In this document: positions 3,524-60,191 of the stretch, piece by piece
Numbering within the stretch: position 1 is the stretch's first letter
Layout of the letters: each line of letters opens with the position of its first letter
IMG/VR virus record: IMGVR_UViG_3300010352_000682
Source of the DNA: an uncultured virus (IMG/VR IMGVR_UViG_3300010352_000682)
Lineage: Duplodnaviria; Heunggongvirae; Uroviricota; Caudoviricetes
DNA length: 64,000 nt
Strand: one strand, 5' to 3'
Notes under the pieces: model-generated
What the model was told of the DNA's origin: nothing
Databases searched by the model: none
Seen by the model: the letters and a program-made list of their open reading frames with translations, nothing else
Program-made: the position numbers and the translations under genes

Positions 3524-4960
3524 TTATTGGTCATAGGATTCAATCGCACTAAGCATTGTATCAAATCCACGTTCTGACATATTAATAAATTGGAGAACCT
3601 TTTCATTCCATCCGGCAATTATATTTGTCTTATCTCCAATAAATTGTTGTGTGCCATATCCCTGCATATCAATAGCGTGTACCCAAAGATTTGGATTTAC
3701 TCGTTCTCTATACTGATTAACAATTGATTGGCAAATATGTTTATATCCTCCATACCTACCGCTATTTATCTCATTATCTGAAAGCAAAATAACTCGATCA
3801 ACATTGATATTGTTATTAAGTATTTGCTTAAATGGAAGAGAAATATCTGTTCCTCCACCATATGTGATAAATGAATCGGCGCTTTGAAGTATTCCGGAGC
3901 GTGAAGAACAGGTTTTTTGAAAAAGCCTTGTATCAAAAGTATAGATAATTGATTCATCACAAATTTTATTTGCAATAGCGGCAATAATACTAGCAATATC
4001 GCAACAACGAACATCAGAATTACCAGAAATTGTGTTACTCATACTTCCAGAAACATCTATTGCAATAAGTGTTTTTCCATGAATCTTTTCAATATTATCA
4101 CAACTTGCTGAAACAGCGTCCTCTAATACATCAATCACCTTATTAGAACATCCCATATTCTTAACAATGCGATATGCAGAATAAAACCTAAAAGGAAGTT
4201 GCCTTGAGCGCCTTACTTTTTCGGGATCTGAAAGGATAGAATAAACCTTATCAATATTATCTGGATGTACATTGATTATATTACGCAAATTACGCAGTAG
4301 TGCCATATAACCAACCTTTCCACTATCAATAAGTTCTTCCCACACTTCTTTTGTATTACCGCGAGCAGAAAGTTCAACTTCCCATGTATATGGAGTTTCA
4401 AGAGCATCATTGATAATTTTACCAAATAATTCATCCTGTTTTGAAGTATTTGGTACAGGATGTGTAAGTCTAAGAACATCCTTAAATTTAATTGATTTGT
4501 TATTGCCGCTATACTTTGCAAATTGGTATTCGTCAAAATTACCCATGCTGTGTGCCAATGCCTTTTTAAGTGCATTTGGAATTGGCTTACCATACATATT
4601 AAGATAACAAGCAAGAATCTCTGTTATATCATCTGCACGAAGCACAACACCGCTGACTGTGCGCCCTGTAAATGCTCTACCGTGCTTTGCTATAATAGAA
4701 GTAAGCACATGAGACACAGAGCGCAAATTCATTTCTCTACGCGCATACACAGCAAGATTTGAAATGAAATGAGCATCAATCTGTGCTATAGTCTCTGCTA
4801 ACTTAACTAACTCTGTGCTGTTATCACCATAATATTTTTGTTCATTAAACATAGTAGTGAGTACCATTGTTACAAGACGAAGTTTATCTTCCATCTTATA
4901 CGCGGCATAACCACATTTATTTGTGGTTGACATTGAATTTTCCTTATTAAACTTAGACAT
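3524..4960 (-). CDS. Ro60/Rsr TROVE-domain RNA-binding protein with C-terminal vWA domain
   Basis: MSKFN start, YARREMNLRSV, FDEYQFAKY, TWEVELS, GYMALLRNLRNI, SRQLPFRFYSAY, MIDAS motif DVSGSM, GGTD, SDNE. Confidence 0.93.
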   Translation of the reverse strand: MSKFNKENSMSTTNKCGYAAYKMEDKLRLVTMVLTTMFNEQKYYGDNSTELVKLAETIAQIDAHFISNLAVYARREMNLRSVSHVLTSIIAKHGRAFTGRTVSGVVLRADDITEILACYLNMYGKPIPNALKKALAHSMGNFDEYQFAKYSGNNKSIKFKDVLRLTHPVPNTSKQDELFGKIINDALETPYTWEVELSARGNTKEVWEELIDSGKVGYMALLRNLRNIINVHPDNIDKVYSILSDPEKVRRSRQLPFRFYSAYRIVKNMGCSNKVIDVLEDAVSASCDNIEKIHGKTLIAIDVSGSMSNTISGNSDVRCCDIASIIAAIANKICDESIIYTFDTRLFQKTCSSRSGILQSADSFITYGGGTDISLPFKQILNNNINVDRVILLSDNEINSGRYGGYKHICQSIVNQYRERVNPNLWVHAIDMQGYGTQQFIGDKTNIIAGWNEKVLQFINMSERGFDTMLSAIESYDQ

Positions 4961-5022: not shown

Positions 5023-5154
5023 TGACGGAAGAATAAGCAAAAACAGCTAGCAAATGCTCTACCGATTGAGCTACTGTACATATGCACAGTTAGGAGTCGA
5101 ACCCAAAACATTTCGTTTAACAGACGAAGTAACTGTTTTTTACACTGTCCGCCA
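5023..5154 (-). ncRNA. Y-RNA-like RNA 1 containing a circularly permuted tRNA-Asn(GUU) module
   Basis: Closing stems GGCGGA/TCCGTC and AAAAACAG/CTGTTTTT; inside, anticodon arm TTCGT-CTGTTAA-ACGAA, T arm TTGGG-TTCGACT-CCTAA, loop-closed acceptor CTGTGC-ATAT-GTACAG, D arm GCTC-AATCGGTA-GAGC; next to the TROVE gene. Confidence 0.85.
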
Positions 5155-22211: not shown

Positions 22212-22927
22212 TATGTTTTCCTCCTATTAATTAGTATACCATCATCATTACCCATAACAACTGATTTTTTATAATGTTCTTGCTTGCCAGTATCTTTGTA
22301 AAAGCACATATAACCTCTCACTGTAGCTGTATAGATAATCTGCAAGGCTTCTTCTTTGGTATCTGCTAAATCATTTAGTGCTAGAATAATTGTTCTGAAA
22401 CTCTTTGCTGACATTTTTCCTAGAGTAATTCTAACAGACAGATAATCACGTAATGCTTCTTTTATTTCATCATCACTGAACAATTCATTAATACTATCTA
22501 TACAGAGTTCATATAGATTTTTCTTTTTAGATATCAATTCTGCGTCAGCAGAGATATCTTTAGATATCTCTTTAGTTTCCTCTTTATATTTATTATCTAT
22601 ATTAATAGCTAATCTTTTTGATGAGGGAGCCTCATCATTTTGATTAGGCAGTATGAACAAATTGTTAACACAAGTCAATCTTCTGTGTCTTCCATCAAAC
22701 TCAACTACTTGTATTAGTCCCAAATCTATTAATTTTTTTATAGACCTTGTTATAGTAGGCACACTACAGCCACAGAATTTTGCAAAATATCCATTACTAG
22801 CATAACAACCATCTTCTGTGGATGACAGACTATCTATTTCAGCCAACAAGACCTTATCTATAGCACTTAATCTTTCATTTAGCCAAATATTTGCTGGTAT
22901 CCATACACCTTTAAAGTCTCTATTCAT
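22211..22927 (-). CDS. Replication initiator/replisome organizer (HTH)
   Basis: RDFKGVWIP, AEIDSL, GCYASNGYFA, TITRSIKKL..LGLI. Confidence 0.85.
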   Translation of the reverse strand: MNRDFKGVWIPANIWLNERLSAIDKVLLAEIDSLSSTEDGCYASNGYFAKFCGCSVPTITRSIKKLIDLGLIQVVEFDGRHRRLTCVNNLFILPNQNDEAPSSKRLAINIDNKYKEETKEISKDISADAELISKKKNLYELCIDSINELFSDDEIKEALRDYLSVRITLGKMSAKSFRTIILALNDLADTKEEALQIIYTATVRGYMCFYKDTGKQEHYKKSVVMGNDDGILINRRKT

Positions 22928-22958
22928 GTGTTTCTTCCTCATTTTTAAGATAGTAAAA

Positions 22959-23045
22959 CACTCTAATAAGCTATGACGGTAACTTATTAGAGTGCTGAGT
23001 TAACCAATATTTAATTGCAACCAGCGCCGTCATACTGGTTAACTA
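22959..23045 (-). promoter_or_regulatory. Structured leader with complementary hairpin loops
   Basis: Hairpin loops ATGACGG and CCGTCAT are complementary; the second hairpin is followed by TTTT; promoter TTGACA-16-TATAAT at 23053-23080. Confidence 0.65.
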
Positions 23046-23099
23046 TAATATAATTATATCACAAAATATATATTTGTCAATATTAAAATGATATAATTT

Positions 23100-23176
23100 T
23101 GGTGCGAATGGTGGGACTTGAACCCACGACTTACCGCTTAAAAGGCGGTTACTACTACCAACTGAGTTACACTCGC
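23100..23176 (-). tRNA. tRNA-Lys(TTT)
   Basis: Cloverleaf, ACCGC-CTTTTAA-GCGGT, encoded CCA. Confidence 0.92.
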
Positions 23177-23353
23177 TTATCTACTAATTCCTCTGTAATA
23201 CCAAGTGTTTCAGCTATAAGAAAACCAAATACCATTGGCAACATATTCTTTTTTACAATAGAATCAATACATGCAATTATGCGTATTACAGATTTAGATA
23301 ATGAAATATAAAGATGTTCTTTACTATTCATAATACTTTCCTAATTTTAATTT

Positions 23354-23430
23354 TGGTGATCTGTAGATGGCTCGAACATCTATTACGGCCTTGAGGGGGC
23401 CGCGACCTATTCCTATTAGTCTAACAGACC
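23354..23430 (-). tRNA. tRNA-Glu(CTC), C33
   Basis: CGGCC-CCCTCAA-GGCCG, T loop TTCGAGC, CCA. Confidence 0.85.
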
Positions 23431-23443
23431 ACATATAAATTAC

Positions 23444-23510
23444 TCGTAGCTAACCTCATACTACGACAACCAGACCCACAATCTTGCACATTACTATGCT
23501 CTGGCTTCCA
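23444..23510 (-). ncRNA. Unnamed structured RNA motif, copy A
   Basis: TGGAA-P1-P2-AAGATTGTGGG-P1'-TG-P3(TGAGGTT loop); covaries with the copy at 23606-23679. Confidence 0.7.
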
Positions 23511-23512
23511 AG

Positions 23513-23597
23513 TGGTGGGCAAGAGGGGAATTGAACCCCCAATCCTCTCGGCAGCGGTTTTTAAGACCGCTCTGTATTCCTATTCCAGCACTCGCCC
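23513..23597 (-). tRNA. tRNA-Leu(TAA)
   Basis: GCGGT-CTTAAAA-ACCGC, long variable arm, CCA. Confidence 0.92.
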
Positions 23598-23605
23598 ACA
23601 TTTAT

Positions 23606-23679
23606 GTTACATTAACCTCAAATGTAACCAACCTTGCCCACTATCTTGCGTACATAAAATATGTATGCCAAGGTTTCCA
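23606..23679 (-). ncRNA. Unnamed structured RNA motif, copy B
   Basis: TGGAA-ACCTTG...AAGATAGTGGG-CAAGGT-TG-GTTACATT-TGAGGTT-AATGTAAC. Confidence 0.7.
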
Positions 23680-23700
23680 TTACAATTTTAAAAACGCTGA

Positions 23701-23777
23701 TGGTAGCGGGGGTGGGATTTGAACCCACGGCCTTTTGGGCATGAACCAATTAAGCTACCAGACTGCTCTACCCCGCT
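23701..23777 (-). tRNA. tRNA-Met(CAT) with initiator-like body
   Basis: AGCGGGG acceptor, GAGCAGTCTGGTAGCT D arm as in tRNA-fMet, loop TTCATGC, CCA. Confidence 0.82.
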
Positions 23778-23818
23778 ATATACTGCACCATCCATATGGT
23801 TATGAAAATTAGTATTTC

Positions 23819-23893
23819 TGGCAGAGACAACAGGACTTGAACCTACAACCCTGGAGTCAAAGTCCAGTGTGTTACCAATTACACCATGTCTCT
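23819..23893 (-). tRNA. tRNA-Gln(TTG)
   Basis: CTGGA-CTTTGAC-TCCAG, GCCA end. Confidence 0.92.
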
Positions 23894-23898
23894 ATATC

Positions 23899-23975
23899 AG
23901 AACAGATTAACACAGCCGAGCAGTAGTCCTCTATAATGACTTCGATAAGGACACATTTTGTATTAATCTGTTCTA
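23899..23975 (-). ncRNA. Candidate hairpin ncRNA heading tRNA cluster 1
   Basis: AGAACAGATTAATACA/TGTGTTAATCTGTTCT stem with internal GTCCT/AGGAC helix; begins at the predicted +1. Confidence 0.5.
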
Positions 23976-23982
23976 TGTGTAA

Positions 23983-24028
23983 ATATTACCACATCTGTCT
24001 AAATAATGCAAGTGCAAAATTGAACAAA
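23983..24028 (-). promoter_or_regulatory. Promoter of tRNA cluster 1 with abutting box
   Basis: TTGCAT-17-TAATAT (TG-extended) preceded by TTTGTTCAATTTTGCAC. Confidence 0.6.
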
Positions 24029-24042
24029 ATATTATTTATTTT

Positions 24043-49309: not shown

Positions 49310-49316
49310 ATATTTC

Positions 49317-49378
49317 TGGTGAGCATTTCCTCTCACCACGCAGGGGTTTTCATCTGCTATGCGTCCGCAAACACATAC
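49317..49378 (-). ncRNA. Candidate three-hairpin RNA
   Basis: TATGTGTT/GACGCATA, GCAG/CTGC and TGGTGAG/CTCACCA hairpins between the two tRNA-Ile genes. Confidence 0.4.
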
Positions 49379-49386
49379 CTCTATTC

Positions 49387-49467: not shown

Positions 49468-49543
49468 TGGTGCCACGAGGAAGAATTTGACTTCTGACGC
49501 TAGGTTCTTCGGACCTACGTTCTACCTACTGAGCTATCGTGGC
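49468..49543 (-). tRNA. tRNA-Phe(GAA), degenerate
   Basis: TAGGT-CCGAAGA-ACCTA (C33); T loop TCAAATT; D-stem mismatch. Confidence 0.65.
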
Positions 49544-49546
49544 ATA

Positions 49547-49626
49547 TGGTGGAGATAAGGAGAGTCGAACTCCTGTCCAGAACTTAGCACATCGGCCTTT
49601 CGCCCTGTCGAAACCAATCTATCCCC
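49547..49626 (-). ncRNA. Minimal tmRNA (tRNA-like domain only)
   Basis: 5' GGGGATAGATTGGTTTCGAC and 3' GGACAGGAGTTCGACTCTCCTTATCTCCACCA match the ends of tmRNA; G3-U70; only 18 nt inside helix 2. Confidence 0.82.
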
Positions 49627-51370: not shown

Positions 51371-51674
51371 TGCTGTCACCATCCTTCCGTTTGCCGTATG
51401 AGCAAAAATCATCATTGTCCATATCACAGTCAAACTGTGCGCCGCCCTCTTTGTCTCTATCTGCTAACTTCTCGCATTCACCGACAGTGGTGTATTTACG
51501 ATTCCAATAGCAACAGTCCTTGCACCGAACCACCTGTGCCTCCTCTCGCTTGTCTGCGGCTTTAAGCGCATCGGCGGCAGCTAACAAAATGGGGCGCAAC
51601 TCGTTTATTTCGCAATCAAGCTCGGTGTTGCTCTCTGCATCCCTCAATGCCTTTATCAGTTCAGTGTTTTCCAT
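51360..51674 (-). CDS. Hypothetical Cys-motif protein
   Basis: VVRCKDC.YW...DDFCSYGKRK phage motif. Confidence 0.6.
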   Translation of the reverse strand: MENTELIKALRDAESNTELDCEINELRPILLAAADALKAADKREEAQVVRCKDCCYWNRKYTTVGECEKLADRDKEGGAQFDCDMDNDDFCSYGKRKDGDSNDE

Positions 51675-52257
51675 CGTATTCCTCCACATATGCCCAGCTT
51701 TGGGGTGGGCGCTTGATTGTGTCATCCTCATATCTCAACCCTGTTGGCATTTCTGGCTTGTGAAACTCGCTCAGTTCCCTCGGCTTGTCGTAGATTTGCG
51801 GGGCAGATATGTGCCAGCCGTAGCCAGTATTTCCATTGAGATAATCGTTAAGCTCGATTGCGGATAAGCACGTTTCGCCCATCACATTCGGTCGGTTCAG
51901 CGTACCAATTTCCTCAAACACAGGCTGGTCATGTGGGCATATGGAGTAGTAAATCCCATACATCTTGTCGCAGACAAATTCTCCTATAATCTTTCCGTTT
52001 GCGTTGCCCCACGGTCTATTGTCGTGAAAAACATTCTTAATCCCCTTGCAATTCATGATGTTGTATTCTTTGGTCACAAAAGGCTGGTCTATCCAGTCCT
52101 TAAAGAGCGTGTGTTCCTTGTCATGTGTGCAGTAGATATAGCACTTGAACGGCGTTTCCAGCTTTGGGCGATTTTTGCGGACTTCAATGGTCTTTTTGCC
52201 ATTGCATATCAGCTCACACCATTGCGGGCGAATGCTGATTAGCACACACTTGTTCAT
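51661..52257 (-). CDS. ASCH domain protein
   Basis: VLISIRPQWCELI.NGKKTIEVRK, GKIIGEF, YGWHIS, RPPQSW. Confidence 0.8.
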   Translation of the reverse strand: MNKCVLISIRPQWCELICNGKKTIEVRKNRPKLETPFKCYIYCTHDKEHTLFKDWIDQPFVTKEYNIMNCKGIKNVFHDNRPWGNANGKIIGEFVCDKMYGIYYSICPHDQPVFEEIGTLNRPNVMGETCLSAIELNDYLNGNTGYGWHISAPQIYDKPRELSEFHKPEMPTGLRYEDDTIKRPPQSWAYVEEYDGKH

Positions 52258-52274
52258 AATCCCTCCTTGCTTAT

Positions 52275-52433
52275 TCATAAGCCCTCCCCATCAAATAGGC
52301 TTGTCTGCTCCGTATGAGCTGCAAATCCTAATTCTTTTGCTTTATAGTATGCCCATCCTTTTTTATAGTCATATTTTTCAGCAAGACTAACTAGATCGTT
52401 GTGGCTCTTAGGATTATCAATTTTTATGTTCAC
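52275..52433 (-). CDS. Small protein with a QTSLF motif near its C-terminus
   Basis: GTG start after GAGGGG; YKKGWAYYKAK...EQTSLF. Confidence 0.45.
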   Translation of the reverse strand: MNIKIDNPKSHNDLVSLAEKYDYKKGWAYYKAKELGFAAHTEQTSLFDGEGL

Positions 52434-52730: not shown

Positions 52731-52738
52731 ATATTTTC

Positions 52739-52799
52739 TAGGCGCTTTTTGAATAATCACATTCATTTTATGTAGATAAAAAATTGCTGTAAGCGCCTA
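52739..52799 (-). ncRNA. Candidate three-way-junction RNA with ACAGCAA strand
   Basis: 9-bp TAGGCGCTT/AAGCGCCTA closing stem plus two internal hairpins. Confidence 0.5.
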
Positions 52800-52803
52800 T
52801 TTT

Positions 52804-53069: not shown

Positions 53070-53094
53070 ATAAGTAAAGTGGTTAATTAAATAA

Positions 53095-53163
53095 GCGTGT
53101 ACCCCTGACGGATTCTAACCATCTTTACCACAAACATCAACGTCAATGTTTAGCGGCACACGC
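53095..53163 (-). ncRNA. tRNA-like RNA lacking D arm and CCA
   Basis: GCGTGTGCC/GGTACACGC closing stem, AAACATT/GATGTTT hairpin, T-arm-like GATGG-TTAGAAT-CCGTC. Confidence 0.5.
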
Positions 53164-53164
53164 A

Positions 53165-53335: not shown

Positions 53336-53437
53336 ATATAATGCCGCACTAAAAAACTTAGTATTAAGACGTCCTTACTAAGAAACTCTATGCGATTAGT
53401 TTTTTATGGTTCCGCTTCCTAGCGGTTTCCTTGAAAA

Positions 53438-59939: not shown

Positions 59940-60191
59940 TTACCTCCCATACATTTTTAGATAGTTATTTTTTCTGTCAACCTCCGAAAGGAGTTTTGCC
60001 GCTTGGAGCCGTTTATCACTCGCTCTACGACTTAAAGACAAGGATTTAAGATTATCCGGCTCAGAGTTTGCTCTAAAATCAAGCGCATCAGCTTCCCTTA
60101 CAAGGATATCAGACTTTGCTGTAAGCAACGGTATTTCGGACCTATATCTCCTTTCTATATCGTCTATTTCTCGTTTAGATGGCATGGACAT
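59940..60191 (-). CDS. Hypothetical helical protein
   Basis: RBS GAGGAGG. Confidence 0.55.
   Translation of the reverse strand: MSMPSKREIDDIERRYRSEIPLLTAKSDILVREADALDFRANSEPDNLKSLSLSRRASDKRLQAAKLLSEVDRKNNYLKMYGR

Follow-up and report, generated by a model that had tools for sequence, protein, structure and literature searches.

The 64,000-nt window analysed here, i.e. the whole stretch of DNA from IMG/VR record IMGVR_UViG_3300010352_000682, carries two copies of a structured RNA that alternate with tRNA genes on the minus strand; this RNA is genuine, uncatalogued and of narrow distribution. A third copy was found in a related phage, and copy A was found to match clostridial tRNA-His(GUG) in register, a likeness that had been missed in the preliminary description.

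The window comprises most of the genome of a tailed phage, of which the minus strand carries all major genes. Clostridium phages have capsids 64% identical to that of the window, and DNA nearly identical to the window is present in sludge and wastewater runs, so the host is probably of the Clostridia type. The phage encodes 21 tRNAs for 18 amino acids, a count that includes an atypical tRNA-Phe(GAA) with C33 and G54 (49468-49543, minus; 42.6 bits), which was detected by Rfam alone and missed by ARAGORN. Neither program called a tRNA for His or Val in the window. The motif lies in a cluster with the minus-strand order Gln-Met-(B)-Leu-(A)-Glu-Lys: tRNA-Gln(UUG) (23819-23893) comes first, followed by tRNA-Met(CAU) (23701-23777) upstream of copy B, tRNA-Leu(UAA) (23513-23597) between both copies, tRNA-Glu(CUC) (23354-23430) downstream of copy A and finally tRNA-Lys(UUU) (23100-23176). 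The tRNA-Glu(CUC) has an atypical T-stem; it stays under the Rfam filter at gathering and scores 47.2 bits in an E-value scan. After tRNA-Lys, a 12/12 match to a sigma-70-type promoter is found for the replication-initiator gene (23080-23053). At the other end, a long hairpin 5' of tRNA-Gln (23894-23980, minus; z -4.6; no Rfam match) is covered by contigs from two RNA-library runs and probably marks the start of the motif-bearing tRNA transcript; its structure is different from that of the motif. The RNA-library contigs X19 (23759-23959) and X20 (23880-24029) cover neither copy, which is no proof that the copies are absent from the RNA, and the covered parts may stem from carried-over DNA. No integrase was found among the window ORFs scanned, and the covarying stems argue against the copies being copies of an attP site.

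Each copy consists of an unpaired GGAA, a 6-bp helix P1, a variable inner hairpin (P2), a conserved 11-nt block (J) and a 7-bp helix P3 that is closed by a 9-nt loop. In copy A (23444-23511, minus), as delimited by sequence check and by the two- and three-copy alignments, GGAA occupies 23509-23506, P1 pairs 23505-23500 with 23474-23469, P2 spans 23499-23486 and J 23485-23475, with its GUG at the tRNA anticodon register. A 2-nt linker then leads from the J/P1 part to P3, where 23466-23460 pairs with 23450-23444 around the loop 23459-23451. In copy B (23606-23680, minus) the corresponding positions are 23678-23675 for GGAA, 23674-23669 with 23636-23631 for P1, 23668-23648 for P2, 23647-23637 for J and 23628-23622 with 23612-23606 for P3 (loop 23621-23613). 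Both copies are present as quoted in the preliminary description, on the same strand as five neighboring tRNAs, and its placement of TGGAA 2 nt (A) and 21 nt (B) past the upstream CCA was borne out. The conserved 5' block is really GGAA instead of TGGAA, as copy C has an A preceding it. The 5' UGG that was suggested to pair with the CCA is not conserved either, copy C having AGG. The distance from the upstream CCA to GGAA is variable (3, 22 and 56 nt in A, B and C), and that to the downstream tRNA is short (13, 8 and 7 nt).

Copy C was detected in phage G041 with a covariance model of A and B (E 1.6e-11) among 50 records with related capsids (50 of the 57 capsid loci, 7 short loci having been dropped). 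The capsid of G041 is 82% identical to that of the window. Copy C lies between tRNA-Gln(UUG), the counterpart of the first tRNA of the window cluster, and tRNA-Leu(UAA); these are the only two tRNAs of G041, and an 11/12 promoter match stands ahead. Copy B with its tRNA-Leu and copy C with its tRNA-Leu align at 80% identity over 141 nt, and copy C is therefore the positional ortholog of copy B. It has diverged: the unpaired blocks are kept and the stems have changed again. Because a model of A and B found C, part of the invariance of the unpaired core is built in; its genomic position is independent of the search model. The search of phage genomes by covariance model, which had been proposed earlier as a check, thereby delivered an independent, syntenic copy. 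In G041, 56 nt separate tRNA-Gln from copy C, and this spacer (L256 1614-1667, minus) contains two more small hairpins that were not seen in the window.

The known distribution is narrow, with only three distinct sequences from two phage lineages in all data searched. In the window, the covariance model of A and B found no third copy (next match 13 bits, E 0.31) and no motif in the remaining tRNA spacers. With 48 of the 77 new tail-protein loci as input, one of 50 records was matched, namely G264, which is 99.96% identical to G041; further covariance-model searches of phage records (0/11 and 1/61 matched) yielded no new sequence. Viral pattern scans gave no real match among 13 and none with a tRNA or the full structure among the 120 matches listed, while two later scans returned 2 of 19 and 2 of 19 real matches, all of which were copy C. 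A metagenome pattern scan found one real match out of 51 (L159, identical to the window); this pattern would miss C-type members, because it requires a TG linker that copy C lacks. None of 86 matches in a GTDB pattern scan was real, and bacterial genomes gave nothing by covariance model (0/151) or by pattern (0/401). Two weak covariance-model matches in bacterial genomes (2/150) were rejected for broken pairs and the lack of a tRNA. BLASTN against cultured phages and plasmids returned only tRNA or chance matches. In run X15, a single contig of a relative covers both copies, with 81 differences and 10 gaps over 22677-23760. Six indels are listed near the motif: one affects the P2 loop of copy B and the other five the spacers; five further indels and the motif substitutions lie outside this listing.

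The covariation suffices to establish P1 and P3 as helices. When only A and B are compared, 37/38 cells are paired and double-sided changes affect 9/19 pairs (1/500 shuffles as high; 25-33% pairing in slid controls). With three copies, all 51 cells of a structure that omits the A.C column of P2 are paired, and double-sided changes are seen in 10 of 17 pairs (0/500 shuffles as high; slid controls 22-40%). The unpaired core behaves oppositely, as 22 of its 24 bases are invariant (GGAA 4/4, J 10/11, loop 8/9) vs 0 of the 14 columns of P3. Ensemble probabilities of P1 and P3 range from 0.66 to 1.0. For P2 there are zero double-sided changes, and its two G-C pairs reach only 0.14, 0.01 and 0.00 in the minus-strand ensemble; P2 is not established as a helix. 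The earlier observation that the stems differ and still pair consequently stands for P1 and P3 and was not confirmed for P2. On the minus strand the predicted pairing of J differs copy by copy. An intramolecular CAU:GUG pairing can be formed in every copy and is favored in A alone (0.5-0.8 vs at most 0.09), and no pseudoknot of more than 4 bp is possible between the conserved blocks.

The comparison with Rfam 15 by Infernal, likewise proposed earlier, gave no family at gathering score nor up to E 10, in support of an uncatalogued structured RNA. For copies A and B the sole overlapping match was a fragment of a permuted tmRNA, with 16 bits and E 0.67, spanning tRNA-Leu and A; copy C gave only miRNA/lncRNA noise. 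The motif is not a canonical tRNA. In none of the three copies is P3 followed by a complementary 3' strand that could complete an acceptor stem and end in NCCA, and neither the window nor G041 offered a convincing 3' acceptor piece that might act in trans. The T-loop consensus C56 and A58 is absent, the 9-nt loop being devoid of C in all copies, and a 5-bp anticodon stem around a 7-nt loop with U33 has a probability of 0.0 for 29-31 with 39-41 in every copy (A33 in B and C). A search for antisense targets of J gave nothing convincing in either phage (best 11/13). Pairing of GUGGG with the acceptor stems of neighboring tRNAs was rejected, since GUGGG is kept while the Leu acceptor changes in G041. 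In terminator scoring, copy C alone scores. Four 13-nt strings of the motif led to only one unrelated paper in the literature, and keyword searches did not find a description of it. Neither did the available parts of PMC10085705, bioRxiv 10.64898/2026.09.22.753630, PMC3399842 and PMC10690425 contain a description. Six supplementary files of the last paper gave no motif match; the motif may still be among its 10,006 candidates, because files 1, 2 and 4 lay outside the search.

The likeness to tRNA-His emerged from the single match of copy A in the plasmid database (E 2): the matched gene, from an Oscillospiraceae record, encodes tRNA-His(GUG). Three register tests (the ranking of 110 tRNAs, the helix ends and the 12 free positions) were chosen after this match had been seen. 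When the GUG of J is taken as anticodon, tRNA-His genes hold the top five places out of 110 tRNAs, whichever copy is compared. Copy A matches these five genes in register at 24, 23, 22, 20 and 20 of 28 nt over tRNA positions 26-53, and other isotypes do not exceed 17. The helix ends, as defined by covariation, fall on tRNA positions: the 3' strand of P1 starts at 39 and P3 ends at 53. Where the copies can differ freely (12 positions), A agrees with five His genes at 10, 9, 9, 7 and 7, and B and C at 1-4. The same register also places GG at -1/+1, G10/C11, A14, G24/C25 and the inner hairpin at the D-arm. After removal of the discovery match and the pattern-picked His genes (109 of 111 tRNAs retained), the best window of copy A in any register was again His in register, at 17/20 (0/100 dinucleotide shuffles as high) and 22/28 (1/100).

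Taken singly, copies B and C resemble tRNA-His no more than expected by chance: for B, 92-100 of 100 shuffles score as high, and for C 27-65. The 35 invariant letters show no preference for His in gapped alignment (326/500 shuffles as high; best Ile and Gly), the 13-nt core alone is not significant (51/300 shuffles reach 11/13), and the gapped score of copy A against tRNA-His is marginal (11/200 shuffles as high). The likeness of copy A is suggestive of an origin from tRNA-His without proving it. As B, C and the invariant core do not exceed chance by themselves, it is only moderately probable that the motif descends from or mimics tRNA-His(GUG). It departs from the tRNA by A33 in B and C, by G38 and by the loss of C56. 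Some enzymes need U33 or the tRNA elbow, and for these the motif would be a poor fit on account of the same departures.

Several other RNAs of the phage deserve mention. An 80-nt RNA at 49547-49626 (minus) scores as tmRNA (63.8 bits, above gathering) and lacks the mRNA-like domain, whereas it has the 5' and 3' ends of a tmRNA, the G3.U70 pair and the CCA. It amounts to a tmRNA reduced to its tRNA-like domain and may serve as a decoy for SmpB or AlaRS; a literature search found nothing specific. The phage encodes Ro60 (3524-4960, minus) with an adjoining YrlA-like RNA (5037-5139, minus; 37.9 bits vs a gathering score of 69). This RNA starts with the 11-nt block ACAGTTACTTC, of which two more are found upstream (5377, 5291 and 5136, minus), which probably makes a tandem of three Y-like RNAs whose Ro60-binding element is non-standard. 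More structured spacers occur in other tRNA clusters on the minus strand (49310-49386, 52731-52803, 53070-53164 and 53336-53437); that at 52731-52803 has a closing stem and the block TACAGCAA, which recurs at 60123. An ASCH-like protein (51661-52278, minus) with weak PADLOC matches to PDC-M11B is encoded beside a tRNA cluster. A related Ro60-encoding phage, G012 (L388 1-2119, L391 19359-19935), has 23 tRNAs in the fetched part, among them one with a CUA anticodon, and a full tmRNA.

We tentatively favor the view, in line with the sponge idea of the preliminary description, that the motif is a refolded former tRNA-His, which would be freed from the tRNA transcript to serve as decoy for some host protein that binds tRNA. 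It would be transcribed together with the phage tRNAs as a small non-coding RNA and excised during their maturation, whereby the cut of RNase P at the downstream tRNA would leave an A/U tail of 7-13 nt. The ancestor would be a tRNA-His(GUG) gene that lost its 3' acceptor strand and CCA. Its former 5' acceptor strand would then have found a new partner in the 3' half of the anticodon stem, giving P1, and the region of the His anticodon would now lie open over 11 nt (J), while the T-stem would have been lengthened to P3 beneath an altered T-loop. Without acceptor stem, CCA and T-loop consensus, such an RNA could be neither charged nor used for decoding. A decoy role is suggested because the anticodon sequence is kept, no tRNA-His is encoded and the phage carries other tRNA mimics (the YrlA-like and the 80-nt tmRNA-like RNA). 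The target may be a host protein that reads the anticodon loop of tRNA-His or GUN, either a tRNA-cleaving defense nuclease or a tRNA-modifying enzyme. The precedents for this are indirect: phage tRNAs counter tRNA-cleaving defenses (PMC11555353), competition by viral tRNAs was suggested as inhibition of AriB, for which tRNA-His is a minor product (PMC12409363), and Cas13b6 cuts isolated His anticodon stem-loops (PMC13692257). In the data searched no partner protein, target or expression of the motif was found. More doubtful is the more specific proposal that a tRNA-His gene was re-paired by a register shift into either a non-translating inhibitor of a tRNA-cleaving nuclease or a new, tRNA-descended ribozyme class.

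A different possibility, though an unlikely one, is that of a new small self-cleaving ribozyme by which the polycistronic precursor of the tRNAs is cut; its active site would be built from GGAA, J and the loop. The near-invariance of the unpaired core and the fixed helix lengths are the pattern of a compact tertiary fold. Hammerheads have a core of CUGANGA and GAAA blocks, of which CUGANGA is missing in all three copies and their flanks and GAAA occurs in B alone. Twister, twister-sister, pistol and hatchet gave no Rfam match with the standard models, permuted forms being outside their scope, and there is no shared pseudoknot of more than 4 bp. A loose descriptor for the nested double pseudoknot of theta/HDV (P1-P2-P3-P1.1, catalytic C in J4/2) found nothing in B and C, and its sole match, in A, begins inside tRNA-Leu; there is accordingly no shared HDV-like fold, and the earlier view that the motif is neither hammerhead nor HDV/theta was upheld by these descriptor tests. 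The position between tRNAs is that of theta ribozymes. According to PMC10879173, these ribozymes cleave at most 5 nt from the tRNA end, and only 4.5% of the linked tRNAs encode CCA. Measured against this, the variable CCA distance of the motif, together with the CCA that the window tRNAs already encode, weakens the earlier proposal of a processing ribozyme for the upstream tRNA. A rather improbable reading is a cis-acting signal for host RNases: the stack of P1 and P3 would resemble a tRNA half and be cut by RNase P or another nuclease, or it would form a roadblock against decay (5'-3' or 3'-5') that aids maturation of the next tRNA. The motif always lies shortly 5' of a tRNA and accompanies tRNA-Leu(UAA) in both phages, and the 13-bp stack is as long as the acceptor plus T stem of tRNA-His. 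This reading is countered by the other tRNA spacers of the window, which do without the motif, and by the loss of C56, the T-loop base used by RNase P; the strong conservation of J would also be left without explanation.

There is likewise a fairly small chance that the RNA has nothing to do with tRNA and binds a protein or ligand, in which case copy A would resemble tRNA-His fortuitously. The lack of a significant likeness to tRNA-His in B, C and the invariant core would agree with this, as would the lack of a tRNA counterpart for GGAA and the conserved loop; the match of copy A itself speaks against it, as do the helix ends, which coincide with tRNA positions 39 and 53. Quite improbable is that the plus strand works, be it as an antisense RNA, with C/U-rich loops that are anti-Shine-Dalgarno-like or complementary to the anticodon arm of tRNA-His, or as a DNA hairpin. 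Folding favors this strand: the complete P1-P2-bulge-P3 model is its minimum-energy fold in all three copies (z -2.6, -6.3 and -3.6), the P2 and open-J arrangement is not that of the minus strand, and the A.C mismatch of B and C would read as G.U. Against this, four G.U cells in three columns are workable on the minus strand alone vs two cells in one column for the plus strand, no plus-strand promoter match is common to both phages, and transcription from the tRNA promoter can hardly fail to read through the motif on the minus strand. From the wobble pairs, the lack of a shared plus-strand promoter and the place inside a minus-strand tRNA run, it is very likely that the minus strand is the working one. 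Finally, the phage's own Ro60 (TROVE and vWA domains) could bind the motif as a Y-like RNA, which is highly improbable. The Ro60 gene is about 18.5 kb away and already has a YrlA-like neighbor. The two do not co-occur either: G041 (88% complete) has the motif without a Ro60 match, and the fetched part of G012 has Ro60 and tRNAs without the motif. The Y RNA element GNCGAAN0-1G, as defined in PMC4201824, is missing in all three copies.

Phage tRNA arrays are read as replacing tRNAs that host defenses destroy. If the preferred decoy reading is true, an RNA without acceptor but with a strongly selected anticodon sequence would represent a second strategy in the same operon, decoy vs replacement tRNA. 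It would also offer a small, natural and traceable case of a tRNA refolding and evolving into a new functional RNA, within the limits of a narrow known range.

Compared to the clostridial tRNA-His(GUG) (RF00005; for example L481 4976-5051, L488, L513), the likeness of copy A over positions 26-53 (at most 24/28) is joined by GUG with G37, by G42/G43, by a 5-nt segment before the paired 49-53/61-65 helix and, in register, by G10/C11...G24/C25 and GG(-1,+1). Unlike this tRNA, the motif has no 3' acceptor strand, no CCA and no RF00005 match, its positions 39-44 pair with 4-9 instead of 26-31, its 5' anticodon strand is short by two nt and its 9-nt loop lacks the T-loop consensus. The theta ribozymes of gut phages (PMC10879173) are similarly short structured RNAs directly between phage tRNAs. 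They differ by a nested double pseudoknot and a fixed distance to the tRNA 3' end; the motif shares neither, and the window tRNAs encode their CCA without a suppressor tRNA or recoding. In the YrlA Y RNAs (PMC4201824) and the pseudo-tRNA 'tRNA-Other' of Bacillus cereus (PMC3399842), a tRNA-derived or tRNA-like structure is likewise used outside translation. Different from the YrlA Y RNAs, the motif lacks the Ro60-binding element and does not co-occur with Ro60. Moreover, both of these RNAs retain the elbow or the cloverleaf, whereas the motif would have retained the anticodon sequence, lost the acceptor and altered the T-loop.
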